DNA of 64,000 nucleotides from Methanobacteriota archaeon (GCA_027064425.1 JAMOPO010000027.1:32001-96000); one strand, 5' to 3'. Shown: positions 18-20,822, numbered from the stretch's first letter. Program-made: numbers and translations. Notes: generated by a model not told the origin, from the sequence alone.

Positions 18-40
18 AACGTTATTGAACTCGAAACGAT
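18..40. repeat. Conserved palindrome copy 1 (AACGTTATTG-AAC-TCGAAACGAT)
   Basis: CGTT-N11-AACG core; 6 nt downstream of the tRNA-Trp CCA end. Confidence 0.75.
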
Positions 41-46
41 TCGGGC

Positions 47-202
47 TGGTGGGCCCGCCGGGATTTGAACCCGGGTCACGGGGTGTCTTCGACCCGCCTC
101 ATCGCTCCAAGGGGCTCCACACCAGAGCCCCGGCACACCCCATGCCAGTCATCGGCGGGCCCCTGGAGCCCCGCATGATAGACCAGGCTACACCGCGGGC
201 CC
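47..202 (-). tRNA. tRNA-Trp(CCA) with a 78-nt intron at 37/38 (intron 85-162); genomic C8; CCA encoded
   Basis: Reverse complement folds as a cloverleaf: GGGCCCG/CGGGCCC acceptor, CT-CCA-G anticodon loop, GTTCAAATC T-loop, ACCA end. Confidence 0.96.
85..162 (-). ncRNA. Intron-encoded box C/D guide RNA for tRNA-Trp Cm34 and Cm39
   Basis: C-like CGATGA; guide ATGGGGTGT pairs with the intron/exon-2 junction (N+5 from D' CCGG = C39); guide TTGGAGC pairs with the anticodon arm (N+5 from D ATGA = C34); matches the known euryarchaeal pre-tRNA-Trp arrangement. Confidence 0.8.
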
Positions 203-231
203 GACACCCAGGCCGGGGCGACCCCAGCCGA

Positions 232-242
232 ATACTTAAGCG
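232..242 (-). promoter_or_regulatory. Probable TATA box of tRNA-Trp
   Basis: CTTAAGTAT on the minus strand about 30 nt upstream of the tRNA 5' end. Confidence 0.55.
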
Positions 243-253
243 TTGCCCCGACC

Positions 254-276
254 TACGTTACGAGGCTCGCAACGAT
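254..276. repeat. Conserved palindrome copy 2 (TACGTTACGA-GGC-TCGCAACGAT)
   Basis: Near-consensus copy just upstream of the tRNA-Trp promoter. Confidence 0.8.
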
Positions 277-564
277 ACGCGGCGGGGCGATGAACCCTGA
301 CGTCGCCAGTCGGCACGCTTCGGGCGTCCCGGGAGTCCTGGAGGCCCCGTGATACACACTTCAACCAGACTCATCGGGTGCGCCGTGGTTCCCCTCCCGC
401 GAGCCCGCCGGAGTCGGTTCCCCCGCGGCTCCGCTGGCGACTGGCCCCCGGCCGGGACGTCCCCCTGCGGCCCCGTCGGGCCGGGACCGTTCTGGGCGTC
501 GCAACGATGCGCCCAGGCCCAATTTAGTCGACGGTTCGAGGGATCCATCCGGGGGGAGGCCGGG

Positions 565-1482
565 ATGCTCCACGGTCGCGTGGAAGAGGTGCTCCGGAAG
601 CAGGGTTACGGTCTCGTGGGCAAGCATTCGGCCGTGAAGCCCTGCCACTGGTGCCGGGAGGCGATCAAGAACGGGCGGCACTGCTACAAGGCCAAGTTCT
701 ACGGGGTGGAGAGCCATCGCTGCCTTCAGATGACGCCCACGGTCGCGTGGTGTCAGCAGCGGTGCGTGTACTGCTGGAGGCCCGTCGAGCTAACGGAGGG
801 GACCGACGACGTTCCGGACCCGGACGACCCGGATCTGATCGTGGAGAGAAGCGTCGAGGAGCAGCGGCGCTTCCTGCAGGGCTACGGTCATCTGGAGGGT
901 GAGGCGCGGAGGCGGTGGAAGGAGGCGATGGAGCCGCGGCACGCGGCGATCAGCCTGGCGGGCGAGCCCACGCTGTACCCGCGCATCGGGGAGCTCATCG
1001 ACGCGTTCCACTCGCACGGATTCAAGACGACTTTCCTGGTCACTAACGGCCTGCGGCCCGACCGGATCGAGTCGTTAGAGCGCGAACCCACCCAGCTGTA
1101 CGTGTCCCTGGACGCGCCCAACGAGGACCTGCATCGCCGGATTAACCGGCCGATGGTGCCGGACTCCTGGGAGCGGATCCGCCAGACCCTGGAGCTGCTG
1201 AGCTCCCTCAGCTGTCGTACCGTAATTCGGATCACCGCGATCAAGGGGTGGAACATGGACGGGACGGCGGAGGAGTTCGGCCGGCTGCTGGCCGAGGTGG
1301 AGCCGGACTACGTCGAGGTCAAGGGGTTCATGTGCGTGGGATGGGCGGCGTTCCGGATGACGCCGGACAACATGCCCAGCCACGAGGAGGTGAAGGAGTT
1401 CGCCGCCGAGATCGCCGAGCACGCCGGGTTCGAGCTCGTGGACGAGTCGCCACCCAGCCGCGTCGCCCTCCTGTCCTCCTAG
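565..1482 (+). CDS. taw1: 4-demethylwyosine (imG-14) synthase, radical SAM
   Basis: HSAVKPCHW, CYKAKFYGVESHRCLQMTP, CQQRCVYCWR, AISLAGEPTLYP; ATG at 565 after a GGAGG RBS. Confidence 0.93.
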   Translation: MLHGRVEEVLRKQGYGLVGKHSAVKPCHWCREAIKNGRHCYKAKFYGVESHRCLQMTPTVAWCQQRCVYCWRPVELTEGTDDVPDPDDPDLIVERSVEEQRRFLQGYGHLEGEARRRWKEAMEPRHAAISLAGEPTLYPRIGELIDAFHSHGFKTTFLVTNGLRPDRIESLEREPTQLYVSLDAPNEDLHRRINRPMVPDSWERIRQTLELLSSLSCRTVIRITAIKGWNMDGTAEEFGRLLAEVEPDYVEVKGFMCVGWAAFRMTPDNMPSHEEVKEFAAEIAEHAGFELVDESPPSRVALLSS

Positions 1483-1846
1483 GCGCGTACTCACCCCGGG
1501 CGACTCCGCGGCAATGAGTTTAGGGCGCGCTACCCTCGCCCCGGACTCGACTCTGATGGCCAGTGCTAGGCGGGTCGAGCGCCCGGCGCGCTAACGACGC
1601 GGCGGTCAGGCTCGGGGCATCGGGCCGGCCGAGGTCGGTGTGCACGCGTCTGGCACCGTGTCCGCGGCTGCGGGCGCGCCGATCCGGCTGTCGCCGGAGC
1701 CGCGGGCGCCGCCGGGCTACCCCCCCGCGCCAAGGGGCTCGTCACCGCAGAATCGGGAGGATCGAGCCCGGGAGGACTCCGCTGCGAACTGCCGCGTGGC
1801 TTACCCGGTTCTTGATGTTCCGGAAACACCTTTGGAGGGAAGTCGG

Positions 1847-2770
1847 ATGATCGTCCGGCTGGCCTGGGCGGTGATGGACTTCCTGGTGACGGTGCTGAAG
1901 GTGGCTCCGATGGTCTTCCTGGGCTTCTTCGCGGCCTCGCTGATGACGGGGTTGAGGGTACACGAGAGGATGGGTAGGCTGCTGGGAGACCGGCTGGCGG
2001 GCTGGGGACTCACCCCGGAGGCCGCCTCGGCGCTGGCGGCCTCACTGGTGAGTCCAAGCGCCAGCTACCCGATGCTCGCGGAGCTTCAGCGGGATGGGCG
2101 GCTGGACGATCGGGACGTGGTGCTGCTGGTCGTGGCGACGACGCTCCCGACGACGGTCGGCGAGATGCTCCTCAAGGGACCCCTCTTCGCGGCCCTGGCG
2201 ATCCTGGGCCCGAAGCTCGGCCTGGAGTACGTGGGCGCGCTCCTGCTCTCGGCCTCGATTCAGACCGTGCCGGCCCTGTTGGTCTACGGTCGACGAAGGT
2301 CCCGCGCGGGTGGTTCACCCGACGTGCCGGTCGGTCCCGGAGCCGCCCAGCCGGTGAGGGAGGTCGTGAGGAGTGCGCTGCGAAGGGCGGCGCGGCGCAT
2401 GGCTCACGTGCTCCCGCGGATGATCGGGGTGGGCGCGCTGACCGTGGTGTTGGCCGAGCTCGTCCGGTGGCACGTTCGAGGCGGGTTCGGCCCGGTGCTG
2501 GCCACGGTGCTGGCCAACCTGAGCCACTACACCGTTGGGTACGCGACGGTGGCCGAGTTCGTCCGCCGGGGAATGCTCTCGGAGCGGGAGGCGGTCGCGG
2601 CGCTGCTGATCGCCGGCTGTGCGAACGTGCTGGCGATCTTCCTGCGCGCGTCGCTGGCCACGTACGTGTCGATCTTTGGGGGTCGGCTGGGAGTTAAGGT
2701 GTGGGCGGCGAACCTGGGGACGAGTATCGGGGCGAGGTTGCTGGTGGCCGGACTGCTGCTGCTGGCGTGA
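1847..2770 (+). CDS. Multi-pass membrane protein (nucleoside-recognition/Gate-like, methanogen family)
   Basis: About 8 hydrophobic segments in two repeated halves; GGAGG RBS before ATG 1847. Confidence 0.65.
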   Translation: MIVRLAWAVMDFLVTVLKVAPMVFLGFFAASLMTGLRVHERMGRLLGDRLAGWGLTPEAASALAASLVSPSASYPMLAELQRDGRLDDRDVVLLVVATTLPTTVGEMLLKGPLFAALAILGPKLGLEYVGALLLSASIQTVPALLVYGRRRSRAGGSPDVPVGPGAAQPVREVVRSALRRAARRMAHVLPRMIGVGALTVVLAELVRWHVRGGFGPVLATVLANLSHYTVGYATVAEFVRRGMLSEREAVAALLIAGCANVLAIFLRASLATYVSIFGGRLGVKVWAANLGTSIGARLLVAGLLLLA

Positions 2771-2780
2771 TCGAGGGGTG

Positions 2781-2790
2781 AACTTTATAG
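2781..2790 (+). promoter_or_regulatory. Probable TATA box for alba
   Basis: AACTTTATAG in the intergenic region upstream of alba. Confidence 0.5.
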
Positions 2791-2849
2791 CGTCCGCTCA
2801 GGGCGCGAAACCGCGCTAAAGGCGCAAAGCGGCGCGAGGGGTGGTTTCG

Positions 2850-3134
2850 ATGGCGGAAGAGGAGAACGTCATCTACGTCGGCAACAAGCCCGTGACCAAC
2901 TACGTGCTCGCCGTGATGACGCAGTTCAGTGAGGGCGCCGACGAGGTCAAGCTGGTGGCCAGGGGCCGGGCCATCAGCCGGGCCGTCGACGTCGCCGAGT
3001 TCATCAGGAACAACGTCATGCCGGAGGTGGAAGTGAAGGACATTGAGATCGGCACCGAGGAGATCGAAACGGAGGAAGGAGACACGATCAGCGTGTCCAC
3101 GATCGCCATTACGCTGGTTAAGCCCTCGGAGTAA
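2850..3134 (+). CDS. albA: DNA/RNA-binding protein Alba
   Basis: [35 protein letters not shown] motifs. Confidence 0.96.
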
Positions 3135-3166
3135 GCCCCTCCTTCCTCCCACGCCCCCTTACGAGG

Positions 3167-3982
3167 GTGCCCTTCTTGTCGCTTAAAGTTGAGGACGTGA
3201 TGACGGAAGACCCGGTCACGGTCGACGCGGACCAGTCCCTCAAGTTCGCCCTCCGCACGATGGAACGCGAGCGGGTCAACCGGCTCCTCGTGACCGAGCG
3301 CGTCTCTGAGGGTCGGAAGGAGCTAGTTGGGATCATCACCGTCCTCGACGCCGCGCTCGCGGTTGCCGACGCGCGCTTCGGTGACGTCCCGCCGTCGCGG
3401 ATTAAGGTCTCCGAGGTCATGACCTCGCCCGTCGTGACCATTTCCCCGGACGCGACCGTGGACCAGGCGATCAAGACGATGCTCTCCCACGGGATCTCCG
3501 GCCTGCCCGTCCTGGACGGGGACCGGCTCGTCGGCATCGTCACCAAGACCGACCTGCTCGACCTGGTCGAGTCCGAGGACTACGTCGCCCTGCACATGAC
3601 CAAAAACCCCGTTACGGTGTCCGCGGGGGCCAGCCTGCTCCACGCTCGCCGGCTGATGTTCGAGGAGGGCGCGAAGGTCCTTCCCGTCGTGGAGCGTGAG
3701 CGCCTGTCGGGCCTCCTCACAGATAGGACTTTGGCCGTGGAACTGGCGCGGCTGAGGGAGAAAACGCCCAAGGGTAAGTTCAAGTCGAGGCTGAAGCGGG
3801 TGCTCGTGGACGACGTCATGCGCCCACCGGTGGCGGTTAGGACGGACTTCGGCCTGGTGGACGCGGCGGAGCTGATCGCGCGGAAGCGCGTGCCGGGCCT
3901 GCCCGTGGTTAACTACCGGGATGAGGTGGTCGGGGTGATCACCAAGACGGACCTCCTCCGGACCCTGGTGGAGGGAACCTAG
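3167..3982 (+). CDS. CBS-domain protein (four CBS domains)
   Basis: Repeated VEDVMT..PVTV / LPV...LVGIVTKTDLL units. Confidence 0.9.
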   Translation: MPFLSLKVEDVMTEDPVTVDADQSLKFALRTMERERVNRLLVTERVSEGRKELVGIITVLDAALAVADARFGDVPPSRIKVSEVMTSPVVTISPDATVDQAIKTMLSHGISGLPVLDGDRLVGIVTKTDLLDLVESEDYVALHMTKNPVTVSAGASLLHARRLMFEEGAKVLPVVERERLSGLLTDRTLAVELARLREKTPKGKFKSRLKRVLVDDVMRPPVAVRTDFGLVDAAELIARKRVPGLPVVNYRDEVVGVITKTDLLRTLVEGT

Positions 3983-6019
3983 TTGTCACTCGTCGGGATC
4001 GACATCGGCGGCACTTTCACCGACCTCGTCGAGTACGACGGCCGGCGCCTCCGGGTCAAAAAGGTGCCCTCTTCACCCCGGCGGCCCGAGCGGGCCTTCA
4101 AGCGCGCCCTGTCGGAGGTGAAAGGGTCACCGGACGCCGTCCTTCACGCGACCACGATCGGCACGAACGCGTTCCTGGGGCAGCGCGGGCTCGAGCTTCC
4201 GAAGGTCGCCCTAATCACCACGCTCGGCTTCCGGGACCTCATCGAGATCGGTCGCCAGGTCCGGCCCCAAATGTACACCCTGGAGCCCAGGAAGCCCGAG
4301 CCGCTGGTCCCGCGCAGCCTGAGATTCGAGGTCAAGGAGCGGGTGTCCCCGGACGGCGAGGTGATCGTCCCGGTGGACGAGGACGGGCTCCGGGAGATCG
4401 CTCGAGAACTGCGCTCGAGGAACGTTCGCGTGGTCGTCATCTCCTTCCTGCACGCGTACGCGAACCCCGAGAACGAGAAGCGGGCGAAAGAAGTGCTGAG
4501 AAAGGAGCTCGGCGATGAGGTGGAGATCGTCTGCTCCCACGAGGTGTGCCGGGAGTACCGGGAGTACGAGCGCACGTCCACGGCGTTGGTGAACGCGGTC
4601 CTGCGCCCGCTGGTGAGCGAGTACGTGGAGCGAACGCGCGAGGCCGTCCGGAAGGCGGGCGCCTCGGATTACCTCCTGATGCAGTCTGACGGGTACGCGG
4701 TGCCGGCGGAGCGTGTCATACACACTCCGGCCAAGCTGATCGAGTCGGGACCGGCCGCCGGGGTGGTGGCGACGCGGGTCGTGGGCGAGTGGCTGGGCGA
4801 GTCCCGGCTTATATCGTTCGACATGGGCGGGACGACGGCGAAGGCGGGGACGGTCGTTGACGGGCGCTACGAGGTGACTAAGGAGTACGAGGTGGGCGGC
4901 GAGACTCACCGCGGTCGGCGCATCCGGGGCTCCGGGTACCCGGTGCTGCACCGGTTCGTCGACCTGACCGAGTGCAGCGCGGGCGGCGGGACGATCGTCT
5001 GGGTGGACGAGGCCGGCGCGCTGCGCGTCGGGCCCATCAGCGCCGGTGCGGATCCCGGCCCGGTGTGTTACGGGAAGGGCGGCGCTGACCCGACGATCAC
5101 TGACGCCAACGTGACGCTGGGCCGGCTGAACCGGAAGGCGTTGTTAGGAGGCGAGATGCCCATCGACGCGGGGGCGGCGGACCGAGCGTTCAAAGGTCTA
5201 GCGGAGGCCGTGGGCGACGAGCCCGAGGAGGTGGCCTACCAGGCCATTCGGCTCGCGGTGGAGGAGATGGCGCGCATCGTCCGCATCGTCACCGTGGAGC
5301 GGGGGCACGATCCTCGGGACTTCTCCCTGGTGGCCTTCGGCGGGGCGGGCCCACTCCACGCGGCCGAGCTGGCGGAGGTGCTGGGCGTCCAGCGCGTGAT
5401 CGTGCCGCAGCACCCCGGCGTCTTCTCGGCGTTCGGGCTGCTGGCCGCTGAGACGGCCTGGGAGCACGTGGTCCCGGTGCTGAAGTCCACGGGGGAGCTG
5501 GAGGACGAGGAGCTGGAGCGCGCGATAAGCGAGGCCGTGTCGCGCGCCTCGAAGGTACTGCCCGGCGAGCCGGACGAGGTGCGAGTTATCGTCGAGGCCC
5601 GGTATCAGGGCCAGGCTCACGAGCTGGACGTCGACGTGGAACCCAAGACCTCGGTGAAGGACGTGGAGGAGGCGTTCCACGCCCGCCACGAGGCCGTGCA
5701 CGGGTTCCGTCTGGACGCTCCGGTTGAGATCGTGAACGTGCGGGCCGTGGCCGTCGCCCGCCGGGAGCCCCCGAGGCCGGAGCCGCTGAAGGAAGGGGGA
5801 GAGGAGAACCCGGACCGGGCGGTGAACGAGCGCCGGGAGGTTTACTTCGAGGACGAGGGGTTCGTGGAGGCCCCCGTCTTCGACCGAGGGCGGCTCCGGG
5901 CGGGGGATGAGATCGAGGGGCCCGCGGTCATTGAGGAGTACGACTCCACGACGCTCGTTCCGCCGGGGTGGAGGGCGCGCGTCCACGAGTTAGGCGCCCT
6001 GATTCTGACCCGGGAGTGA
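3983..6019 (+). CDS. Hydantoinase A / 5-oxoprolinase family ATP-binding subunit
   Basis: GIDIGGTFTD, REYERTSTALVNA, SGPAAG, DMGGTT, GPISAGADPGPVCYG, AFGGAGPLHA. Confidence 0.92.
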   Translation: MSLVGIDIGGTFTDLVEYDGRRLRVKKVPSSPRRPERAFKRALSEVKGSPDAVLHATTIGTNAFLGQRGLELPKVALITTLGFRDLIEIGRQVRPQMYTLEPRKPEPLVPRSLRFEVKERVSPDGEVIVPVDEDGLREIARELRSRNVRVVVISFLHAYANPENEKRAKEVLRKELGDEVEIVCSHEVCREYREYERTSTALVNAVLRPLVSEYVERTREAVRKAGASDYLLMQSDGYAVPAERVIHTPAKLIESGPAAGVVATRVVGEWLGESRLISFDMGGTTAKAGTVVDGRYEVTKEYEVGGETHRGRRIRGSGYPVLHRFVDLTECSAGGGTIVWVDEAGALRVGPISAGADPGPVCYGKGGADPTITDANVTLGRLNRKALLGGEMPIDAGAADRAFKGLAEAVGDEPEEVAYQAIRLAVEEMARIVRIVTVERGHDPRDFSLVAFGGAGPLHAAELAEVLGVQRVIVPQHPGVFSAFGLLAAETAWEHVVPVLKSTGELEDEELERAISEAVSRASKVLPGEPDEVRVIVEARYQGQAHELDVDVEPKTSVKDVEEAFHARHEAVHGFRLDAPVEIVNVRAVAVARREPPRPEPLKEGGEENPDRAVNERREVYFEDEGFVEAPVFDRGRLRAGDEIEGPAVIEEYDSTTLVPPGWRARVHELGALILTRE

Positions 6020-6034
6020 TCCGCCCAGGCGCCG

Positions 6035-6057
6035 ATCGTTTTGATAATCAGAACGAT
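6035..6057. repeat. Conserved palindrome copy 3 (ATCGTTTTGA-TAA-TCAGAACGAT)
   Basis: 6 nt downstream of the tRNA-Cys CCA end. Confidence 0.8.
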
Positions 6058-6063
6058 TCCCGG

Positions 6064-6139
6064 TGGAGCCGCGGCCGGGATTTGAACCCGGGTTACGGGA
6101 TCTGCAGTCCCGCGCCCCGCCAGGCTAGGCTGCCGCGGC
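6064..6139 (-). tRNA. tRNA-Cys(GCA); genomic C8; U73; CCA encoded
   Basis: GCCGCGG/CCGCGGC acceptor, CGGGA-CT-GCA-GA-TCCCG anticodon arm, GTTCAAATC T-loop. Confidence 0.96.
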
Positions 6140-6189
6140 CTCGGTGGGGCCGTGCGTGCGCACCCGGCCCCCAGTTTTAAGTCTTTCCC

Positions 6190-7629
6190 CTACGGCGGCT
6201 CCACCCCGGGCCGCTCGTACAGCCACACCTCCGCCCACTGACCCACGCGGACCCCACCGCGCACGATCTCGAACGCCCTCACCGACACCTCGTCGGGCTC
6301 GAACCCCGCGACCTCAGACGCCAGCTCGACGAGCTCCTCCTCATCGTACACCCTGCCCTTCTCCACCTCGAACCGCTCGCCCGCCGGGACCACGTGCCCG
6401 TAGCCGCGCTCCGTGTGCACGTACACCGTCGCCTCTCGCGCCCTCTTCGCGACCGCGCACCCGACGGCGTTGCACACCGGGTGGTGCGGGACCACCTCGC
6501 CCACGCCAGTGAGCTCCCGGTACTCCTCCGCCAGCCCTCCCGCCCAGAGGACCTTCTCGCCTTCCAAGCGCTCCCTCAGCTCCCGGCGGACCTCGACCAG
6601 GACCCGCTCGGCCACCTCCTCGGGATCTCCGAGCTCCCTCAGCGCCCGCCGGGACTCGCGCGGGTCGCCGTCCGGCTCCGGGTCATGGTACCCGGCGACC
6701 ACCAGCGCGTCCGTGATCGTCGGCTTCGAGCCCCCGTAGCACGCGGGCAGGGACGTCTCCTCAGTGACCCCATCCTCGGAGAGGACCGCGTTACCGCCCA
6801 GGGGGAGCGACCTTACCTTGGCCGCGAGCACCGAGGTCGGGTGCCCGAACAGGGTGGCGTTCCGCTCCACCATCGGGGCCCCGTCCCGCGCCCGCACGAG
6901 GTCCACGGTCGATCCTCCCACGTCGGCCAGCAGGAAGTCGCGCTCTCCCGACAGGTACGCGGCACCCAGCACGCCCGCCGCCGGGCCGGAGTGCAGGACG
7001 TTTACCGGGACGCGCAGCGCCTCCCGGGGCGTTTGAAGCCCGCCGTCTCCGCGCAAGACTCCGTCAACGTCGCCTATGGATCGGAGGAACCTGCGCGTCA
7101 CCCGCTTCACCCGGGCGCTGAGCACGGCCGTGGCGACGCGGCGGGGGAAGCTGCCCCGAGGGACGTGGTGGCCCGGGACCACGGCGAGCGCCTCATCCCT
7201 GACGGCCTCGGCGATCTTCGCCTCCAGCTCCGAGTTCCGCTGCGAGAACTTCGAGACGACGGCGACGGCGTGCTCCGCGGGCGCGGTGACGGAGTCCGGG
7301 TCCACGTCCTCGACCACGTCCCCCTTGTGGTCCACGTACCCCTCCACCACCTCCATGCTGTCGGCGAGCTCCCCGAGCGGGCTCGGGTCGAGCCCGGGGC
7401 CCGGGATCACGACCAGGTGGACTGGGTCGCCCCGGTCCCGGACGAGCGCGTTGATGGGGAGGGTCGTGCTGACGCGGCGCTCGTCCGCCTCCAGCTCCCT
7501 CAGAGCCTTTTTCGTGGGCTCGACGAGCCTCCCATCGCGAAGGACCTTAACGCTCTCGACGACCTCCCCGTCCTCCAGGACCACCGCGTCCACGTGCGTG
7601 CTGCCCGTGTCCAGGCCGAGCACGCGCAC
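6190..7629 (-). CDS. Hydantoinase/oxoprolinase family protein (short form)
   Basis: LGLDTGSTHVDAV, STTLPINA, SGPAAG, DVGGSTVD, PTITDA. Confidence 0.85.
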   Translation of the reverse strand: MRVLGLDTGSTHVDAVVLEDGEVVESVKVLRDGRLVEPTKKALRELEADERRVSTTLPINALVRDRGDPVHLVVIPGPGLDPSPLGELADSMEVVEGYVDHKGDVVEDVDPDSVTAPAEHAVAVVSKFSQRNSELEAKIAEAVRDEALAVVPGHHVPRGSFPRRVATAVLSARVKRVTRRFLRSIGDVDGVLRGDGGLQTPREALRVPVNVLHSGPAAGVLGAAYLSGERDFLLADVGGSTVDLVRARDGAPMVERNATLFGHPTSVLAAKVRSLPLGGNAVLSEDGVTEETSLPACYGGSKPTITDALVVAGYHDPEPDGDPRESRRALRELGDPEEVAERVLVEVRRELRERLEGEKVLWAGGLAEEYRELTGVGEVVPHHPVCNAVGCAVAKRAREATVYVHTERGYGHVVPAGERFEVEKGRVYDEEELVELASEVAGFEPDEVSVRAFEIVRGGVRVGQWAEVWLYERPGVEPP

Positions 7630-7709
7630 CGGCGGTCCCCCTCAGTAATAAGGGACCTCCTCATCGGTCGGCAAGCCGGCCTCTCCTCATCGGGGGGTCC
7701 GCGAGGTTG

Positions 7710-8801: not shown

Positions 8802-8825
8802 GGGTCCTTCGGGGCGGCGAGGGGC

Positions 8826-10965: not shown

Positions 10966-11292
10966 TTGGGTCTGGTTGAGGTGCGGGTCTTCGTGGACCC
11001 CGAGAACGTCGGCAAGCTGATGAACGCGATGGCGGACGCCGGCGTGACCGGGTTCTACGCGGTGGAGTATCGGGGCGTGGCCCCGGATCGTTGGGAAGGG
11101 TTCGAGATCGACGAGGATCCGGAGCAGGCGATCAAGGCCATGAACGACCTCTCGGAGCGCGCGGTCATGGTGGTGACGGTGATCCCGGAGGACCGGCTGG
11201 ACGACCTGAAAAAGGCCGTGAGGGAGCGTCTGTCGGGCGACAGGTACACGATCATGGTGGCTGAGGTGAGGGAAGTCGAGGTGAGGGGCTAG
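10966..11292 (+). CDS. Methanogen-conserved MJ1244-like protein (PII-like fold)
   Basis: FVDPENVGKLMNAM..AGVTGFYAVEYRG..P..W.GF...EDPE pattern. Confidence 0.65.
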   Translation: MGLVEVRVFVDPENVGKLMNAMADAGVTGFYAVEYRGVAPDRWEGFEIDEDPEQAIKAMNDLSERAVMVVTVIPEDRLDDLKKAVRERLSGDRYTIMVAEVREVEVRG

Positions 11293-12257: not shown

Positions 12258-12346
12258 CTCAAGTCCCCCGCTGAGCGCCACATTCACGGTGCCGGGCTTC
12301 TCATTACCGGCGGACGTCGGCGCGGGCACCGTAGCGAACCCAGTCG

Positions 12347-13579: not shown

Positions 13580-13709
13580 ACTCTCCTTGACCTTCCTCGC
13601 GCGGGCGCCGACGGGCGAGTCTCGCCAGGGTGGCTTAATCCCCTCGTCACCCCCTTGACGGGCCCGGTTTCCGAAACGCGCGCCCCGGATTTCAGTTAAT
13701 CAATTAACC

Positions 13710-14942
13710 TCACGATCCTCCGCACTCCGACGCCGGAACGAGGCCGCGACGAGACCGCAGCGCCGCGGGCAGTGGGAGCGGGACCGTGGGTAGCGGGGGC
13801 AGCCGCCTCTTCCGTTCAGCCCCACCCCCTCCCTTGACGGCAACGCCGCTCGGTGCCACGATCACGGTGACCGGGTTGCTGAACGCTGGAGCCATGAGCG
13901 GTCCCCCCTGGAACATGGCCACGTAGACGAACCGACCGGACTTCTTCGGAGTGACCCTCAGGGGCGGGGTCTTACCGTCCGGACCGGTGACCCAGCCCGC
14001 AAGGGCCGAGGCGCTCACTATCGCCCCGTTTTCCAGCAGGAAGATCCTGGCGTTCGGGACCGGGCGGCCCCTGTAATCCGTGAGCACGGCCCGGAGCTCG
14101 AACGCCCTACCACCGTCGACGGCCTTGGCGAGGAGCCTCAGCCTGACCCGCTCCCGGAACGTGCACACGGTTCTCCAGGTGGCGGGCTCGTAGAGGGGAC
14201 CGCCCGCGTACCGGACCTCGATGGCGAGGATCCCGGGCTTCTTGGGCCTGACCCACAGCTGGAACCCGCCGGCTCGGTCCGGCCGCGCGGTGATCGTCTC
14301 GCTCAGCCCGCACCCCTGAACGACCACCGTGATCGGCGCGGGGATCGGCACCCCGAACACCCCGTCCCGCAGCTCTCCCCGGATCATCACGCGCTGTCCG
14401 ATCAGGCCAACCCGTGGGAGGACCGCGACCCGCAGGCTCACCGGGAGCCTCGTTAGGAACTTCGTCAGCGGGTGGATGACGCAGTCCGGGACCCTGGCCA
14501 CCGGTCTCGAGGTTGCTCCACGGAGCTCCAACAGCAGCAGCTCGGGCCTGGTCAGGTTGTTCGGGCCGGTAATTAGCAGTCCGTAGAGGCGCAGGTACCG
14601 GCCGGTAAGACCCACGTAAGCTCGGGCCTTAATCGCGGACGACCGGGTTTTAAGCGCGCGGGCGGTGACCTCGATCCACCCTCTGGTCTCGTCGCCCACG
14701 CGGACGCGGGTGATCCATCTGACCCCGCCGTTCTCCGCGAGGACCAACCTACACCACGGCTTACCGTTCACCAGCAGGTCCACGGCCCAGCCCACTCTCG
14801 GGTCCAGCCGCAGCAGCGGGTAGTACTTCAGACCGATCGCGTAGACCGCTGCGTGGCCGGTCGCTGGAGCCGTGAACGCCGCTAACAGCACCACCGCGAG
14901 CGTCAGAGCGGTCCGAAGTATTACCCCCGAGGCGGCCGGCAC
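13710..14942 (-). CDS. Secreted protein with Ig-like repeats
   Basis: Signal peptide; two repeats ending Y/F.GGPL..PA; basic/Pro-rich C-terminus. Confidence 0.7.
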   Translation of the reverse strand: MPAASGVILRTALTLAVVLLAAFTAPATGHAAVYAIGLKYYPLLRLDPRVGWAVDLLVNGKPWCRLVLAENGGVRWITRVRVGDETRGWIEVTARALKTRSSAIKARAYVGLTGRYLRLYGLLITGPNNLTRPELLLLELRGATSRPVARVPDCVIHPLTKFLTRLPVSLRVAVLPRVGLIGQRVMIRGELRDGVFGVPIPAPITVVVQGCGLSETITARPDRAGGFQLWVRPKKPGILAIEVRYAGGPLYEPATWRTVCTFRERVRLRLLAKAVDGGRAFELRAVLTDYRGRPVPNARIFLLENGAIVSASALAGWVTGPDGKTPPLRVTPKKSGRFVYVAMFQGGPLMAPAFSNPVTVIVAPSGVAVKGGGGAERKRRLPPLPTVPLPLPAALRSRRGLVPASECGGS

Positions 14943-14975
14943 TCCCCGACGGACCCTCCACTGGGTAAACGGAAG

Positions 14976-14985
14976 GCATATAAGT
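14976..14985 (+). promoter_or_regulatory. Probable TATA box for the 15037 surface-protein gene
   Basis: GCATATAAGT with purine-rich BRE-like ACGGAAG upstream, in the divergent intergenic region. Confidence 0.5.
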
Positions 14986-15036
14986 GTCTCTTCGGTCGGT
15001 CAAGTATGAGGCCGGTCGGAAGGGGGTGAGAACCCA

Positions 15037-17715
15037 GTGGCCCGCGTGGGGCCGGTAATCCTCGCGGCGTTGGCCGCTTTGTTGGCGCTCACGGGCGCCT
15101 CGGCGGCGGCGCCGCTGTCGGTTAGCCAGTCGGACGTGGTCAGGGGAGTCGTCGAGTGGGAGCTCAGCAAGGGTGTCTTCACGCCGGTGTACAGGCAGCT
15201 GGAGATCACCTCAGAGGCCGCCGTATCCAACCCGTCGACCAACCAGAAGACCTACGATGTGGTCCCTGTGGCGCGGTCGCCGTCGCTGACGGGTTTCCAG
15301 ATGCTACAGGACCCGAACGCGCAGGTGCAGGTAGCGCAGCTCAGCGACAAGGTGGTCGGTGAAACTTACGTTAAGCTGTCGCCCGGAAGCCAGGCGGCGG
15401 TCGGCTACCGGCTGGTTTGCGTCAGCCCGACCGAGGGTGAGTGGGGTCGGGTCGCTCCGGTAGTGAAGTACGACATCATGGTCAACGGAGCCCCGTGGTT
15501 CCAAACGCAGGTGTCGGGCGCCGACACCATCGCGGAGGTGATCGAGATCGCCAACCACGGCGTCCAGGTGTGGGTCGACGACGAGCAGGGAGGCACGCAG
15601 CAGGCCGGTTCGCTCTACAACCTGATGGTGCTGGTCCCGGTTGATCAGCTCTACCAGCTCAGGCAGGCCCTCGGAGTCGACTACGAGGTCACACTGTCCG
15701 TGGCCGAGAACCCGTTGAACGGGACGATCCCGAGCAATCTGCAGCCGACGGCTAGGGTCACCGTGGACGCGAACGGGAACCCGACCATCACCTTCGACCT
15801 GGACGGTGACGGCGCCTCGGACTCGTGCCTGATGATCTACACCCTGAATGGCGTTCAGTACCTGACGATCGGTGTCGACACGAACGGTGACGGTGCGGTG
15901 GACGAGCCCGCGAAGTACGCGGTGGACCCGGACTCGAAGCTCGGCGTTCGGGTGATGTACCAGCTGTCCTCGGCGCCCTCGCAGGCCGCGACGGCGCTGC
16001 TGCCGGACGTGTACCTCGAGTACGAGTACGCGTACAAGGACTCCTCAGGCAACTACGTAACGAGCGGGGTCACCGTCACCCCACCGTGGTACGTGGCCGT
16101 GCGGCCCGACGAGCTGATCGAGGTCTCGTGGGTCGGTGAGCCGCTGCAGGTGCCGTCGAACGGTGATTGGGGCAGCGTGGACTGGCAGGTCGTGCCGAGG
16201 GTGCGGAACCTGGCGGAGTTCGGGGTCTACCTGCAGCAGGTCAACGTTTACGGACTGTCGAGCGCGGACCTAGTCAACGGGTGGACGCTGGTGCAGTCGT
16301 TCTCGTTCAACCCGCCGAGCGACGGGCTGATCCCGGCCGGTGGTGAGTGGGTCGGGGAGGCCGTAACGATCAGCCCGGCGTCGAGCCCGATCTACGGCAG
16401 CGCGGTGTACTGGAAGATCGAGGTGCAGCTGGGCAACCCGCTGCTGGGTCAGGAGGTGGAGCTGGACAAGACCCGGGCGGCCACCGGTGAGGTCGTGGTG
16501 AAGGGTGTGGCACTACCGGTCGTGCCGCAGGGCGTCCCGGCGGTCTTCGGGCTCTCGGCGTACACCGAGCCGACGAGCGTGCAGCCGGGCACGCGGACGG
16601 TGACGTTCCACTTCAAGTTGGGCGTGGACGGGTCCGCACTGACGTCCGACTCGGTGACCGTCTCGATCTCGATCCCAACCCAGACGGCCCTGGGCGGTTC
16701 GGCCAGCTACGTCGCCGGGAGCGTGAGGGTGTACGTGTACAAGGCCGTGCAGCACTCGAACGGCACGGTGAGTCTGGTGAGGGAGGACGTCACGGGCCAG
16801 GCCAGCATCACGGAGCCGTCGAGCACGAGCAACACGCTGACGATCACGCTCGGTCCGAGCCAGGACCTGGCGTCGGTGCGGTACATCGAGGTCGTGTTCC
16901 AGGTGAACGCCGACTTCCAGTCGGGTGACGCGTACACGATCTCGGACGCCACGGTGCAGATCGGTAGCGTGAGCTACGCGTTCCCGGAGGTTCGGGTAAC
17001 GTCAACCTACGTGCCCGACGTCCCGGTGATCTCGGGTGAGAAGACGAGCTCGGGCTTCGTGGTTGAGGCGAACGGGTTCGTGAGCCCGAAGACCGGTGAC
17101 TTCGGCATGCCGATGGTGGTCGTGGATTACGTGCCGATGGCCGACGTGAAGGACACTGATGGTGACGGGCAGCCGGACATCAACGCGTTCCTGCAGAACC
17201 TGAGCGTCACCGGCCGGTGGGGTCAGACGGACATCGCGTCAGCGGAGTACGTCGGGCAGGCGTCGACGGGAGAGTACATCCTGGCGCTGAAGGACGCGAG
17301 CGGGAACGTGCTGGCGTACCTCGCGGTGAAGGTGCTGGGCACGGTAACCATCGGCAACGTTGACTACTACGCCATCCTGCTGTACAGCGTGAGCTACGAC
17401 CCGAGCTCCGGCACGATCACCGGCGTCCGGAACATGCTGCCGAACACGCAGATTCAGGTGACCTACCCGAGCACGTACTACGACCCGAACGGCGTGCCGG
17501 TGCGGTACTGGGACGAGATCCGGCTGCTGATCGCCGTGGACCCATCGTCCATCCCGATGACCCACTCGGCCGGTGGACCAACGCTGAAGGTCAGGCTGCC
17601 AACGACGGAGGGCGCGCACCAGTACAGCATCACCAAGAAGGGCAAGCGGGCGGTGCCGGTGGCCATCGCGCTGCTGGGCGCGCTGATCCCGCTGATCGCC
17701 CGCCGGCGCTTCTAA
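15037..17715 (+). CDS. Large secreted cell-surface (S-layer/adhesin-like) protein with C-terminal membrane anchor
   Basis: Signal peptide; S/T/V/G-rich beta-strand composition; three Dx[DN]GDG loops; tail KKGKRAVPVAIALLGALIPLIARRRF. Confidence 0.8.
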   Translation: MARVGPVILAALAALLALTGASAAAPLSVSQSDVVRGVVEWELSKGVFTPVYRQLEITSEAAVSNPSTNQKTYDVVPVARSPSLTGFQMLQDPNAQVQVAQLSDKVVGETYVKLSPGSQAAVGYRLVCVSPTEGEWGRVAPVVKYDIMVNGAPWFQTQVSGADTIAEVIEIANHGVQVWVDDEQGGTQQAGSLYNLMVLVPVDQLYQLRQALGVDYEVTLSVAENPLNGTIPSNLQPTARVTVDANGNPTITFDLDGDGASDSCLMIYTLNGVQYLTIGVDTNGDGAVDEPAKYAVDPDSKLGVRVMYQLSSAPSQAATALLPDVYLEYEYAYKDSSGNYVTSGVTVTPPWYVAVRPDELIEVSWVGEPLQVPSNGDWGSVDWQVVPRVRNLAEFGVYLQQVNVYGLSSADLVNGWTLVQSFSFNPPSDGLIPAGGEWVGEAVTISPASSPIYGSAVYWKIEVQLGNPLLGQEVELDKTRAATGEVVVKGVALPVVPQGVPAVFGLSAYTEPTSVQPGTRTVTFHFKLGVDGSALTSDSVTVSISIPTQTALGGSASYVAGSVRVYVYKAVQHSNGTVSLVREDVTGQASITEPSSTSNTLTITLGPSQDLASVRYIEVVFQVNADFQSGDAYTISDATVQIGSVSYAFPEVRVTSTYVPDVPVISGEKTSSGFVVEANGFVSPKTGDFGMPMVVVDYVPMADVKDTDGDGQPDINAFLQNLSVTGRWGQTDIASAEYVGQASTGEYILALKDASGNVLAYLAVKVLGTVTIGNVDYYAILLYSVSYDPSSGTITGVRNMLPNTQIQVTYPSTYYDPNGVPVRYWDEIRLLIAVDPSSIPMTHSAGGPTLKVRLPTTEGAHQYSITKKGKRAVPVAIALLGALIPLIARRRF

Positions 17716-17735
17716 ACCCCTCCCTTCTTATTTCC
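17716..17735 (+). terminator. Pyrimidine-rich terminator-like tract
   Basis: ACCCCTCCCTTCTTATTTCC directly after the stop codon. Confidence 0.45.
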
Positions 17736-17738
17736 GGA

Positions 17739-17761
17739 ATCGTTACGAACCTCGTAACGGG
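17739..17761. repeat. Conserved palindrome copy 4 (ATCGTTACGA-ACC-TCGTAACGGG)
   Basis: Perfect 8-bp arms CGTTACGA/TCGTAACG, after the surface-protein gene. Confidence 0.85.
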
Positions 17762-17773
17762 GGAGCCCGGCCC

Positions 17774-18964
17774 TTGCCGCCCGCAGCCCTCGCCTTCCTC
17801 ACGGCCTTGATCGCGCTCTCCTCTCCGGTCTCGGCGTCAACGCCCCAGAAGGTGGACATCGTCGTTGACTCGGGGAGTGGCCAGCTCCCGGACCCGCGCT
17901 ACCTGAACTCCTACCCCAACACTCCCTCGTACGACTCCCGGATCATCGTCACCACCAAATCCGGGTCCGTCGTCTGGCGGTACTCCATCTACCTCGGCAT
18001 CGTGGACGGGCGGGGGGCGACCGCCCCGGCCCCGATGATCGTGGCCCGGGTGGACGAGGGTGCGGACGGGACCTGGGACGTCGTCCTGTTCGAGGGCAGC
18101 CCGCCGAACCCGACCGTGACGCTCCCTTACACGGCCGAGTACACCGTGCCGGTCGCCCTGGAGGTCCGGGCGGACGACAACGAGGGGGATGGCGACTACG
18201 ACGACGTGGACGTGATCCTCAAGATCACCGGCACCGGGATCACGGTGGAGTGGGTGAGCGTATCCTCGGGGGTCACCCCGTGGCTGGAGGTGAAGCCCCT
18301 CACCGTCAACGCCTCTTGGGACCCCGCGGGCGGGACGCTGAGCGTTGGCACGCCGCCCGCCTACCGGTTCTCACGGTCGACCGTGAGCGTCTCGTTCCGG
18401 GACGATGGAACGGTGGTCGGCGTGGACGCGCAGGGGAACCCCTCGTACTATGACGATCCCAACGTCAGCGGGGTGGCCCCGCCGTACCTCTCGAACTTCA
18501 AGGCGCTCGTGCTGATCCCCGCCCCGGAGAACGCGGCCTCCGTGGAGCTTCAGGGATCCTTCGTCGTAACGCGGACCATCAACGACGGGTCACAGACGTT
18601 GGATGAGGGAACGTTCGACGTGACCCTGCAGCCCGGTAGCTCGGTTCAGGTCACCGGCACCAACCAGGCGGCTCAGCTGACCTTCCAGCTGGAGGCGTTC
18701 TCGTCGGGCTACGCCATCCTGCTGATCACCATGTCCGCCGACTCGGGCGGCTCGGCGGTGTTCAGCTCGGGCGACAGGTACGAGCTGACGTTCTCCAGGG
18801 TAGTCGTCTACGACTCCTCGGGCAACGCCGTGGAGATCCCACCGGACCGGGTGCTAACGCTGGCTGTGATCTTCGGCGGCGCGCCCGGAGACCGGGCGAG
18901 CGTGCTACCGTTCTCGGTCGTCGGCCTCCTCGCCCTCGCACGCCTTCTTCAGCGATCGCCATAG
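17774..18964 (+). CDS. Secreted cell-surface protein with C-terminal hydrophobic tail
   Basis: Signal peptide; S/T/D/G-rich; acidic DDNEGDGDYDD loop. Confidence 0.72.
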   Translation: MPPAALAFLTALIALSSPVSASTPQKVDIVVDSGSGQLPDPRYLNSYPNTPSYDSRIIVTTKSGSVVWRYSIYLGIVDGRGATAPAPMIVARVDEGADGTWDVVLFEGSPPNPTVTLPYTAEYTVPVALEVRADDNEGDGDYDDVDVILKITGTGITVEWVSVSSGVTPWLEVKPLTVNASWDPAGGTLSVGTPPAYRFSRSTVSVSFRDDGTVVGVDAQGNPSYYDDPNVSGVAPPYLSNFKALVLIPAPENAASVELQGSFVVTRTINDGSQTLDEGTFDVTLQPGSSVQVTGTNQAAQLTFQLEAFSSGYAILLITMSADSGGSAVFSSGDRYELTFSRVVVYDSSGNAVEIPPDRVLTLAVIFGGAPGDRASVLPFSVVGLLALARLLQRSP

Positions 18965-19855
18965 GCGGTCGAGGAGCTCGACGCGGTCCATGGACAGCTC
19001 CAGCCTCAGCCACTCGAGCCCGTGGGCGACCTTGCCGCGCAAGGTTGCGGCGTAGGGCTTCGAGTACGGGCAGTCCGCGTTGAACGGCTCGAGCCCGGTC
19101 TCCTCCGGGACGCGGGCGGTCCACTCCTCCGGGACCCGGACGATGGGTCGCACGATCGTCGTGGGAGGGAACTCGTAGTTGACGTACCTCGAGACCATCC
19201 CTTCGAGCCGCTCCTTCGGGGGCAGGAGCTTCACTCCCTCCCCCTTCACGGCCGTCGCGAGGGCGGTGATCACCGCGTCGTCCAGCGTGTGAGCCAGAAC
19301 GATCTTCTCCGAGCGCTCCCGGAGCTCGCGCCGGCGGATCAGCGAGCAGATCAGGCAGGGGGACTCGTCGTGCTCCTCGGCCAGCTCTCCCACGTCCTCG
19401 CGCGGTCGGACGTACTCCAGCTCCAGGCCTAGGCGCCGGCAGAGCTCCTCGCAGTGCCGCCGCCCCTCGCTCCCCCAGACCTCCTCGCCGTGAAGCCTGA
19501 CGTCGATCAGGACGGGGCGGAGCCGGAGGCCCAGCCGGCGGGTGAGGGGCTCCAGCACGAGCAGGCAGGTCAGGCTGTCCTTGCCGCCGCTGAACCCGAC
19601 GGCGACTTCCTCCCGAGGCTCGAAAAGCTCATACCTGGTTATAACGCGATGGGCCCGGACCGAGGCGCGCTCGAGGGTCTTGGACCGGACGATCGTTAGC
19701 CCCGCTCGCTCCAGCCTCCGGCGCCGGCGCTCCGTGAGCTTAGCCCGGCGGGGGTTTAGCGGCACTATCACGCCCTCCTCCAGCACCGCGACGTACCGGG
19801 CGTCCACTCCCACGTCCCGGAGCTCCTCGAGCACCTCCTCGCGCCGCAACGCCAC
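18905..19855 (-). CDS. PP-loop ATPase, TtcA/TtuA-like
   Basis: GFSGGKDS, PCLICSLIRR, AHTLDD, RPIV, CPY. Confidence 0.8.
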   Translation of the reverse strand: MALRREEVLEELRDVGVDARYVAVLEEGVIVPLNPRRAKLTERRRRRLERAGLTIVRSKTLERASVRAHRVITRYELFEPREEVAVGFSGGKDSLTCLLVLEPLTRRLGLRLRPVLIDVRLHGEEVWGSEGRRHCEELCRRLGLELEYVRPREDVGELAEEHDESPCLICSLIRRRELRERSEKIVLAHTLDDAVITALATAVKGEGVKLLPPKERLEGMVSRYVNYEFPPTTIVRPIVRVPEEWTARVPEETGLEPFNADCPYSKPYAATLRGKVAHGLEWLRLELSMDRVELLDRLWRSLKKACEGEEADDRER

Positions 19856-19864
19856 GACCCCGGG

Positions 19865-20506
19865 GTGATCGTCTCGCTAACGATGCTACTGATGGCCGCG
19901 AACGTGGCCGCCTACGTGGTGACGATCGGGCCGGACGGGACCATCCGACCGGACGTCGCATGGGCCTACGGGCTGTACGCCGCGAACCTGATCTACCACC
20001 CGGAGTGCCTGATAACCCACATGTTCCTGCACGCCGGACCGCTTCACCTCCTGTTCAACATGCTGGGGCTGCTCACCTTCGGTCTGCAGCTTGAGCGGAT
20101 GCTCTCCCGGGGCGAGTACCTGTTCCTGTACCTCGCCTCCGGGGTCGCGGGCGGGCTGCTCCAGGTGGTGGTGACTCCGAACATCCCCACCATCGGCGCC
20201 TCGTCGGCCGTCTTCGGCCTGGTCGGGTGCCTGACGATGCTGCGGCCGATGAGCATGATCATGTTCTTCTTCGTCCCCATGCCGCTGGTCCTGTTCTCGG
20301 TCCTGTACGCGCTGGCGGCCGTGTTCGTGATCGAGTCGGGAGCGTTCACGCACGTGGCGCACGCCGGGCACCTCGGAGGCATGCTTGCGGGCGGGGCGCT
20401 GGCCCTGCTCTACCGGCCGCGGGAGGCGCTGAAGGGGCTCGCGGCCGTGTCGGTGGTGGTCCTCCTGCTCCTGGTCGGGTACTGGATGCTGGTGGGTGGA
20501 CCGTAG
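19865..20506 (+). CDS. Rhomboid family intramembrane serine protease
   Basis: THMFLHAGPLHLLFNM, GASSAVFG (catalytic Ser), AHAGHLGG (catalytic His). Confidence 0.93.
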   Translation: MIVSLTMLLMAANVAAYVVTIGPDGTIRPDVAWAYGLYAANLIYHPECLITHMFLHAGPLHLLFNMLGLLTFGLQLERMLSRGEYLFLYLASGVAGGLLQVVVTPNIPTIGASSAVFGLVGCLTMLRPMSMIMFFFVPMPLVLFSVLYALAAVFVIESGAFTHVAHAGHLGGMLAGGALALLYRPREALKGLAAVSVVVLLLLVGYWMLVGGP

Positions 20507-20507
20507 G

Positions 20508-20522
20508 GCGAAATCTTTATGC
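20508..20522 (+). promoter_or_regulatory. BRE/TATA of tRNA-Ala
   Basis: GCGAAATCTTTATGC about 30 nt upstream of the tRNA. Confidence 0.55.
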
Positions 20523-20551
20523 TGGTCCACGCCCGGGTGCCGCCTGGAGGA

Positions 20552-20628
20552 GGGCCCGCAGCTCAGCCTGGTAGAGCGCGGCCCTGGCGCGGCCGTGGCC
20601 CCGGGTTCAAATCCCGGCGGGTCCACCA
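20552..20628 (+). tRNA. tRNA-Ala(GGC); genomic C8; G3:U70; CCA encoded
   Basis: GGGCCCG/CGGGTCC acceptor, CGGCC-CT-GGC-GC-GGCCG anticodon arm, GTTCAAATC. Confidence 0.96.
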
Positions 20629-20636
20629 AGCCGCGA

Positions 20637-20659
20637 ATCGTTATGAATCTCAAAACGAT
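20637..20659. repeat. Conserved palindrome copy 5 (ATCGTTATGA-ATC-TCAAAACGAT)
   Basis: 8 nt downstream of the tRNA-Ala CCA; just upstream of the tRNA-Ile promoter. Confidence 0.8.
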
Positions 20660-20664
20660 CCGGG

Positions 20665-20682
20665 GCGAAAGACTTAATAATT
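20665..20682 (+). promoter_or_regulatory. BRE/TATA of tRNA-Ile
   Basis: GCGAAAGACTTAATAATT upstream of the tRNA. Confidence 0.55.
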
Positions 20683-20715
20683 GGATCCGAGAGCGGGCCG
20701 CATGGAGCCGCGGCA

Positions 20716-20793
20716 GGGCCCGCAGCTCAGCCAGGTCAGAGCGCGGGGCTGATAACCCCGAGGTCCCGGGTTCAAATCCCGGCGGGCCCACCA
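20716..20793 (+). tRNA. tRNA-Ile(GAU); genomic C8; CCA encoded
   Basis: GGGCCCG/CGGGCCC acceptor, CGGGG-CT-GAT-AA-CCCCG anticodon arm, GTTCAAATC. Confidence 0.96.
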
Positions 20794-20799
20794 GCTCGG

Positions 20800-20822
20800 A
20801 TCGTTACGAGAATCGTAACGTT
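20800..20822. repeat. Conserved palindrome copy 6 (ATCGTTACGA-GAA-TCGTAACGTT)
   Basis: 6 nt downstream of the tRNA-Ile CCA; perfect 8-bp arms. Confidence 0.85.

Follow-up and report, generated by a model that had tools for sequence, protein, structure and literature searches.

A 23-bp palindrome past the 3′ ends of tRNA genes and other transcription units in Methanopyrus, a candidate protein-bound DNA boundary site

A 23-base palindrome, AT-rich in a GC-rich genus, follows tRNA genes and other transcription units in a 64,000-nucleotide stretch of archaeal DNA (Methanobacteriota archaeon, GCA_027064425.1, JAMOPO010000027.1:32001-96000; this whole stretch is called the window below) and in the Methanopyrus genome to which it belongs. 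The consensus of the element is GA-ATCGTTAYGA-N3-TCRTAACGWT. It has a characteristic position and orientation bias at gene ends, is conserved throughout the genus, consists of two arms that vary independently of each other and is predicted to form no stable hairpin at growth temperature. Judged from its sequence, it may be a genus-specific, dyad-symmetric double-stranded DNA (dsDNA) site that is read by a putative, probably dimeric, sequence-specific protein and marks the downstream boundary of the unit, a reading in which our belief and our doubt are about equally strong. We infer that a protein binds the element and that this binding stops or releases RNA polymerase, by termination or attenuation.

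The palindrome at stable-RNA genes

The genome containing the window (G000; 1.54 Mb, 67.8% G+C, 57 contigs, 99% complete, class Methanopyri) was scanned for the palindrome core CGTT/AACG, which was found 95 times at a spacing of 11 nucleotides (nt), compared to 3-23 matches at spacings 5-19. With a symmetrised weight matrix, 112 sites scored at least 16 bits and 100 sites at least 22 bits. Each of the 38 tRNA genes was followed by a copy scoring 26 bits or more, whose start lay 8-14 nt past the discriminator; in 25 of the 38 the distance was exactly 9 nt, that is, 6 nt past the CCA (CCA+6). These genes were taken from a T-arm/acceptor scan and comprised 37 with CCA and one Sec-type gene; Rfam alone gave 34, and ARAGORN with introns allowed made many false long-intron calls and was left out of the counts. 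Near-duplicate tRNA loci (His, Ser and Trp) on the small contigs C16, C18, C32 and C45 versus the large contigs look like assembly redundancy, which slightly raises the tRNA counts. Just two of the 38 tRNA genes had a copy within 150 nt upstream, and on this count the palindrome was rejected as an upstream promoter element.

The other stable RNAs were followed by copies as well, 12 nt past 5S, 85 nt past 16S and 135 nt past 23S rRNA, 15 nt past the signal recognition particle (SRP) RNA and 24 nt past the RNase P RNA. The 3′ end of 16S (positions for 16S/23S: C57:192839-193351 and C26:1-870) has two copies behind it, the first after 85 nt and the second after about 277 nt; beyond the outer one a called gene lies on the same (minus) strand with its start codon 43 nt away. 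The 3′ end of 23S likewise had two copies and a tRNA downstream. The copies after each of the two genes point to separate transcription of 16S and 23S.

The 100 copies that reach 22 bits include 38 behind tRNAs and another 38 located 8-66 nt past called stop codons, eight of the latter being common to convergent genes. No called 3′ end was found within 80 nt of 22 copies, at least four of which follow rRNAs, and two copies were inside genes. An earlier note on this DNA, made from the window, had claimed a fixed spacing and had proposed a genome-wide scan for enrichment at 3′ ends; the scan bears out both the concentration of the core at spacing 11 and the enrichment at the ends of tRNA, rRNA, SRP and RNase P RNA genes and at stop codons. 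Double elements that overlap in a 17-bp register were seen at C52:74060/74077 and C3:131778/131795; in these, a single arm is distal in the first copy and proximal in the second.

Protein genes and unit boundaries

Protein genes were called with our own codon-bias gene caller (1547 genes in G000). In a Pfam search, the 58 genes with a copy at most 80 nt downstream included those of the methyl-coenzyme M reductase beta and alpha subunits (mcrB and mcrA), the thermosome, A-type ATPase subunit A, EF-1 beta, the ribosomal proteins S15, L7Ae, L32e and S10, FrhB, a polyferredoxin and rubrerythrin; 14 of 60 gene-element pairs were genes merely convergent with a tRNA. The coding log-odds per codon, a proxy for codon bias, was 0.817 for genes with the element versus 0.746 for those without it (p = 0.002).

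The copies were distributed unevenly among the intergenic classes, with 17 in convergent, 31 in tandem and 3 in divergent regions, of which the genome has 79, 346 and 176, respectively (chi-square p = 1.3e-5; depletion in divergent regions p = 1e-4). A tRNA-type promoter match of at least 10 bits was present in 8 of 30 tandem regions with a copy versus 23 of 233 without (p = 0.014), and in 29% of the divergent regions, which served as the positive control. This promoter excess fits an element at which one unit closes before another opens.

Canonical oligo-T terminator signals are nearly absent in G000. A run of five T within 80 nt downstream was detected for 44 of 1513 genes and for one of the 58 element-bearing genes. 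The observation from the window that tRNAs lack a downstream oligo-T tract extends to the genome, with five T within the same distance after 0 of 37 tRNAs and four T after 1 of 37.

One copy was found 32 nt past mcrB (C26:20004), with the next gene 19 nt beyond, and another past mcrA (C26:23945); the one behind mcrB may act as an attenuator within the operon. On the mRNA side, the flanks of the palindrome are C-rich upstream and G-rich downstream. We noticed also a C-rich motif, CCCACGCC, 3-9 nt upstream of the palindrome in the transcript sense in the 3′ untranslated regions of seven protein genes (for example C26:19989, C15:380782 and C3:145616); 7 of the 29 occurrences of this motif outside called genes adjoin the palindrome.

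Conservation across genomes

The strict 23-bp pattern, allowing at most two mismatches, was present in all six genomes of the genus of the window, with 13 to 58 sites each, and in none of 25 genomes of other archaeal families. An exact-pattern scan of a species-representative collection gave 36 loci, of which 32 were in three Methanopyri/Methanobacteriota metagenome-assembled genomes and the remaining four were single matches in unrelated bacteria, approximately at chance level.

In the sister genome G002, the element followed all 31 tRNAs found, including genes without an encoded CCA, and over the genomes G001-G005 the proximal arm was present at the right distance after 134 of 154 T-loop matches. 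At the orthologous tRNA-Ala and tRNA-Ile sites, both available in G001-G004 and one of them in G005, the arms are kept while trailers and loops differ. The end of the orthologous surface-protein gene in G003 keeps its copy, as does the end of its counterpart in the window (open reading frame, ORF, 15037-17715). The tRNA trailers have a genome-specific consensus. A comparison for insertion polymorphism covered three orthologous sites only, and the element was kept at all of them.

A dyad in DNA or a hairpin in RNA

The arms were analysed in 68 copies oriented by the preceding transcript, 38 at tRNAs and 30 at one-sided mRNA ends. Watson-Crick pairs between the arms numbered 535, versus 532.9 ± 5.4 for independent arms (p = 0.375). 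Mismatches of the G-U type occurred 30 times and of the A-C type 34 times, and since the two are equally frequent, wobble pairs are not tolerated strand-specifically. Common C-A mismatches were also seen in the G002 cores in transcript orientation. Neither compensatory nor wobble-conserved pairing, as a hairpin in RNA would show, was thus found in the 68 copies, and the flanks were non-complementary too, with 4.10 pairs of 10 versus 4.21 ± 0.15 with swapped partners and a minimum free energy (MFE) that was unchanged by swapping the flanks. A GC-rich stem extended by the C-rich and G-rich flanks was rejected, as these do not pair site by site. What is conserved is the sequence rather than the pairing, and the covariation that the earlier note had named as the outcome that would speak for a hairpin was not seen.

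In an energy model that assumes standard salt, the mean hairpin MFE, -5.8 kcal/mol at 37 °C, had risen to about 0 at 85 °C; at 100 °C it was 0, and none of the 68 copies folded. Growth at 84-110 °C is reported in the available text of PMC5217627, and the stem is predicted, at standard salt, not to be stable at growth temperature. A run of at least five T just downstream, as in archaeal intrinsic terminators, was likewise lacking at tRNAs and at all but one of the 58 element-bearing genes.

Each arm is itself quasi-palindromic (TCGTWACGA). In the oriented copies the conservation profiles of the two arms are mirror images, and arm 2 does not repeat arm 1, which disfavours tandem single-strand motifs; direct repeats of that kind in RNA were rejected on this ground. 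With its enrichment at 3′ ends, mirrored profile and independent arms, the element is a sequence-specific site of dyad type at unit ends, as a protein-bound DNA terminator would be. Independence of the arms, flanks that do not pair, a hairpin that melts and the mirrored profile together favour recognition of double-stranded DNA by a putative symmetric reader.

Promoters, transcription machinery and candidate readers

The tRNA genes of G000 carry archaeal promoters made up of a B recognition element (BRE) and a TATA box, with the consensus sCG[A/T/C]AA[A/C]-n-TTTWTAW in 37 upstream regions. Read outward, each arm of the palindrome contains CG[T/A]AAC, a hexamer like the BRE of these promoters. 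The likeness is weak, with a mean of 1.8 bits compared to a background of -9.2 bits and a 99th percentile of 2.9, and may hint, from the sequence of the arms, at a reader related to TFB. The element was rejected as a promoter in its own right, given that the full tRNA-promoter model scored 2.8 bits on it versus about 18 on real promoters.

No TFIIS-type zinc ribbon (transcript-cleavage factor TFS) was detected in G000, with the control positive in four archaeal reference genomes. This agrees with the available part of the review PMC7289017, which states that among Archaea M. kandleri alone lacks TFS.

The DUF1678 family has about nine paralogues in G000 (C48:1204-1893, C15:344771-345349 and seven further places), 41-88% identical to the query and six of them at 66% or more. 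Two DUF1678 genes have a pair of palindromes 150-290 nt downstream. DUF1678 was rejected as reader or cassette, the element being within 300 nt of only two of the nine paralogues.

Interpretation and rival explanations

As a protein-bound boundary site, the element would close every stable-RNA gene as well as strongly expressed protein genes and operons, including sites that are common to convergent genes. As the site starts 6 nt past the CCA, polymerase would have to enter at least the proximal half-site before release, and a factor-assisted pause and release inside the element would be likelier than a stop in front of it. The earlier note had preferred the site of a DNA-binding protein to an RNA hairpin; the dyad site at the DNA level is supported, but a plain roadblock, one of the roles named in the note, fits poorly, the site beginning only 6 nt past the CCA.

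Several observations weigh against a protein-bound boundary site. RNA polymerases cover about 12-18 bp of downstream DNA, and since the 6-nt trailer is shorter than this footprint, a protein holding the full site would halt the enzyme before the CCA is transcribed. The element is also polar: at tRNAs, position 2 was T in 36 of 38 copies and its partner position 22 was A in 22 of 38 (p = 3e-4), and in the G-A of the upstream flank, -1A was present in 32 of 38 tRNA and 20 of 30 mRNA copies. The mirror flank was weak, with +1T in 16 of 38 tRNA and 11 of 30 mRNA copies (p = 3e-4 and 0.04, respectively), and such polarity is not predicted by a purely symmetric DNA site. Between positions 8 and 16 there was a weak association (Fisher p = 0.043), and the hairpin energy model, by assuming standard salt, takes no account of the very high salt inside the cells of this genus. 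Just 58 of 1513 protein genes had a copy within 80 nt downstream, so the element cannot be a general terminator. It was missing after 10 of 11 strict C/D-box small RNA (sRNA) candidates, and a role as a general small-RNA terminator was rejected on the single candidate among the 11 that it follows (strict regular expression, small sample).

RNA coverage was available from four runs of one 2013 study, with size-fractionated libraries, as Logan contigs over one 20-kb locus (L072) of the sister genome G002. One copy, in the interval separating an AIM24-like gene from a convergent tRNA, is spanned by two RNA contigs (depth about 22), which extend 31 nt or more beyond it in both directions. This, too, counts against the boundary site, for some RNA crosses that copy on a strand that the contigs do not give; the evidence from bridging is weak, as Logan contigs give neither strand, ends nor levels. 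Poly(A) junctions were found at the mature CCA of three tRNAs in the locus. Six bins of 667 nt were silent in all four runs, and the uncovered parts of the locus, for example downstream of the copies at 11049 and 12619, are uninformative. An abundant C/D-box sRNA at L072:5735-5798, with poly(A) junctions at 5791-5798 and no palindrome downstream, overlaps the called start of an AIM24-like ORF.

The main rival is a signal at the RNA level, in which the transcribed palindrome, as hairpin or as sequence, would be recognised on the nascent or precursor RNA, so that the transcript is cleaved or released immediately beyond its mature end. Candidate readers would be a 3′-end factor, an enzyme that matures tRNA 3′ ends or a factor for cleavage and termination like aCPSF1/FttA, which takes part, as does Eta, in factor-dependent termination in Archaea. 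We consider such a signal rather unlikely, though several features point to it: the tight spacing to the tRNA end (CCA+6), the polarity with the direction of transcription, the RNA contigs that bridge one copy, the tracking of the ends of tRNA genes without an encoded CCA in G002, and an RNase Z-like gene in G000 (187 bits over the full length, short of the curated cut-off). A signal of this kind was proposed in PMC5217627, and according to the RNA-seq in PMC3695527 tRNA maturation begins with 3′ processing, as far as the available text of these two papers goes. The arms, however, show no covariation, G-U mismatches are no more frequent than A-C, the flanks do not pair and the hairpin is predicted to be unfolded at growth temperature, while the mirrored conservation speaks against single-strand motifs in tandem. 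The element also closes protein genes and convergent pairs and is therefore not a tRNA-specific maturation signal. Six 8-mers of the motif were absent from the lists of tRNAs, 126 C/D sRNAs, CRISPR RNAs and other sRNAs in the available part of PMC3695527, whose small-RNA tables list 5′ leaders and not 3′ trailers.

A site in DNA with a role other than termination, such as a topological or chromatin boundary where heavily transcribed units end (recruiting a topoisomerase or nucleoid protein, much as E. coli REP/BIME elements bind gyrase and IHF) or a decoy for TFB/TBP, would share the dyad-symmetric, DNA-type conservation and the bias to highly expressed units with the protein-bound terminator. 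The BRE-like CG[T/A]AAC in the arms and the several copies that adjoin the next promoter, as in the 5 nt to the BRE of tRNA-Ile, would suit it as well. We hold it to be quite improbable, as a topological or chromatin role does not call for the near-constant spacing from tRNA 3′ ends, the full promoter model scores far lower on the element than on real promoters, and upstream copies were found at two tRNAs only. Hardly credible, finally, is a miniature mobile palindrome of the type of the repetitive extragenic palindromic (REP) sequences, without a function of its own, building up in 3′ intergenic DNA that tolerates it. Dispersal in about 100 extragenic copies, mostly at gene ends, and the occasional overlapping pairs on C52 and C3 are what such an element might leave, but all 38 tRNAs carry a copy at a near-fixed distance, and the position is kept at orthologous sites across species with diverged flanks. 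Loop and flanks are not conserved, so the copies did not arise by recent duplication, and no Y1 (RAYT/IS200) transposase was found in the 99% complete genome, which leaves a REP-like origin unsupported.

A wider claim can be made tentatively and is possible at best, namely that Methanopyrus has largely replaced the oligo-U intrinsic terminator by a sequence-specific terminator element in dsDNA that is read by a dedicated, putative protein. Such an element would act at all stable RNAs and at the operons with the highest expression, in both orientations and sometimes as an attenuator within an operon, as after mcrB. The replacement may be linked to the loss of TFS in this lineage. If true, it would be the first system in Archaea resembling Sal box/TTF-I, Reb1 or mTERF. 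Archaeal termination has so far been understood as oligo-U intrinsic termination with a few general factors, and one 23-bp palindrome that closes the stable-RNA genes and the busiest operons in a genome with few T tracts would be a clean natural system. Methanopyrus could yield a site-specific archaeal termination factor, and could reveal how transcript ends are formed near 100 °C, where RNA hairpins cannot form.

Palindrome copies in the window

The pattern CGTT-N11-AACG had seven matches in the window versus 0.55 expected, and none of 100 shuffles reached seven. Sequence inspection and a pattern scan located all six copies that the earlier note had listed, and the seventh match is a weak copy of 16.5 bits with its core at 488-506. 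The note had also placed four copies 6, 6, 8 and 6 nt past the CCA of tRNA-Trp, -Cys, -Ala and -Ile, which is correct (9, 9, 11 and 9 nt past the discriminator), and had rightly described the transcript-proximal ATCGTT as perfect in these four and in the copy after the surface-protein gene. In the remainder of the window (20823-64000), pattern, ARAGORN and Rfam scans gave no additional copy and no additional tRNA.

The first copy, at 18..40 on the minus strand, reads ATCGTTTCGAGTTCAATAACGTT on that strand, scores 29.4 bits and lies 6 nt past the CCA of tRNA-Trp. A plus-strand DUF531 gene enters the window from the left, and its 3′ end overlaps the copy by 11 nt. The tRNA-Trp gene (47..202, minus strand; CCA at 47-49, discriminator at 50) was recovered by the T-arm scan and by eye; neither ARAGORN nor Rfam called it, and ARAGORN missed it because the gene carries an intron. 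This intron is long, with GATGA motifs resembling C/D boxes. The copy at 254..276 (TACGTTACGAGGCTCGCAACGAT; 26.5 bits) was not assigned to a strand and stands upstream of the tRNA-Trp promoter, whose BRE/TATA is about 6 nt away; neither a called gene nor an Rfam RNA precedes it. The weak seventh copy, at 486..508 (ACCGTTCTGGGCGTCGCAACGAT; 16.5 bits), was also left without a strand. Between these two copies lies a GC-rich spacer of 211 nt (277-487), which folds no better than shuffles (z = +1.7). A hidden non-coding RNA in this spacer was rejected, with no Rfam match at E up to 1 and the same fold z-score, and the spacer may represent the 5′ part of the Wyosine/radical-SAM gene, for which an ORF start at 349 is possible.

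The minus-strand copy at 6035..6057 stands 6 nt past the CCA of tRNA-Cys (6064-6139, minus strand) and, from the other side, 15 nt past the stop of a convergent plus-strand hydantoinase gene (3983-6019). On the plus strand, the copy at 17739..17761 is found 23 nt past the stop of an ORF of 892 amino acids (15037-17715), and the next gene begins 12 nt beyond. The predicted protein of this ORF has a hydrophobic segment at its C-terminus (membrane anchor) followed by RRRF, and had no Pfam match at 1e-5. The last two copies, both on the plus strand, belong to adjacent tRNA genes with promoters at 20508-20525 and 20665-20682. The copy at 20637..20659 begins 8 nt past the CCA of tRNA-Ala(GGC), gene 20552-20628, and is followed after 5 nt by the BRE/TATA of tRNA-Ile (20665-20682). 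The copy at 20800..20822 lies 6 nt past the CCA of tRNA-Ile(GAT), gene 20716-20793, with the next gene 3 nt on.

Comparison with known systems

The earlier note knew of no description of this element, which is wrong as regards the core motif. The pattern CGTTA(N)9TAACG was reported about 10 bp downstream of the tRNA genes of M. kandleri AV19 (BMC Genomics 2017;18:27, PMC5217627), where, in the text available, it is called palindromic and species-specific, is found in its strict form at approximately half of the tRNA genes with similar patterns at others, and is speculated to be a signal for tRNA 3′ maturation. The element described here matches that motif in pattern and spacing of the core, palindromic form, position about 10 bp past tRNA genes and restriction to Methanopyrus. 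The motif itself is thus already known, and its use beyond tRNA genes, its function and its reader are not in print. The accessible text of PMC5217627 mentions no copies at rRNA, SRP RNA, RNase P RNA or protein genes and no other species, whereas the element described here occurs genus-wide, behind every tRNA and numerous other genes, and has the properties of a dyad site in DNA. A search of the full-text literature on palindromes, inverted repeats and termination in Methanopyrus found the 2017 motif paper only, and the motif is not mentioned in the available part of the M. kandleri small-RNA study PMC3695527.

Like the oligo-T and factor-dependent (Eta) termination of Archaea, as described in the available text of PMC7289017, the element lies directly downstream of genes and needs no RNA hairpin. 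Unlike the oligo-T terminators, it has a specific 23-bp sequence and no T tract. The hairpins of bacterial intrinsic terminators are likewise inverted repeats just past a gene, but the AT-rich stem in Methanopyrus is predicted to be melted at 85-100 °C, has no U tract and shows no compensatory change.

In Escherichia coli, REP sequences and bacterial interspersed mosaic elements (BIME) are bound by gyrase and IHF. They resemble the element in being short, dispersed palindromes that number about a hundred and lie at the 3′ ends of genes. The differences lie in the fixed position behind every tRNA, in the conservation of the sequence of the arms and not of their pairing, and in the lack of a RAYT-type transposase, the Y1 family (RAYT/IS200-like, PF01797) having no match in G000 with the control positive in 6 of 14 genomes.

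Protein-bound terminators of eukaryotes include the Sal box/TTF-I and Reb1/Nsi1 systems of Pol I, mitochondrial mTERF1 at tRNA-Leu and the Pol II roadblocks of Reb1 and TFIIIB. For Archaea, nothing of this kind is described in the available part of the review PMC7289017. What the Methanopyrus element has in common with them is a conserved dsDNA site past a stable-RNA unit that would work by way of a putative bound protein and not of an RNA structure, and that can serve convergent units; it differs from them in being palindromic and in standing 6 nt from the mature 3′ end, closer than the geometry of a roadblock allows.

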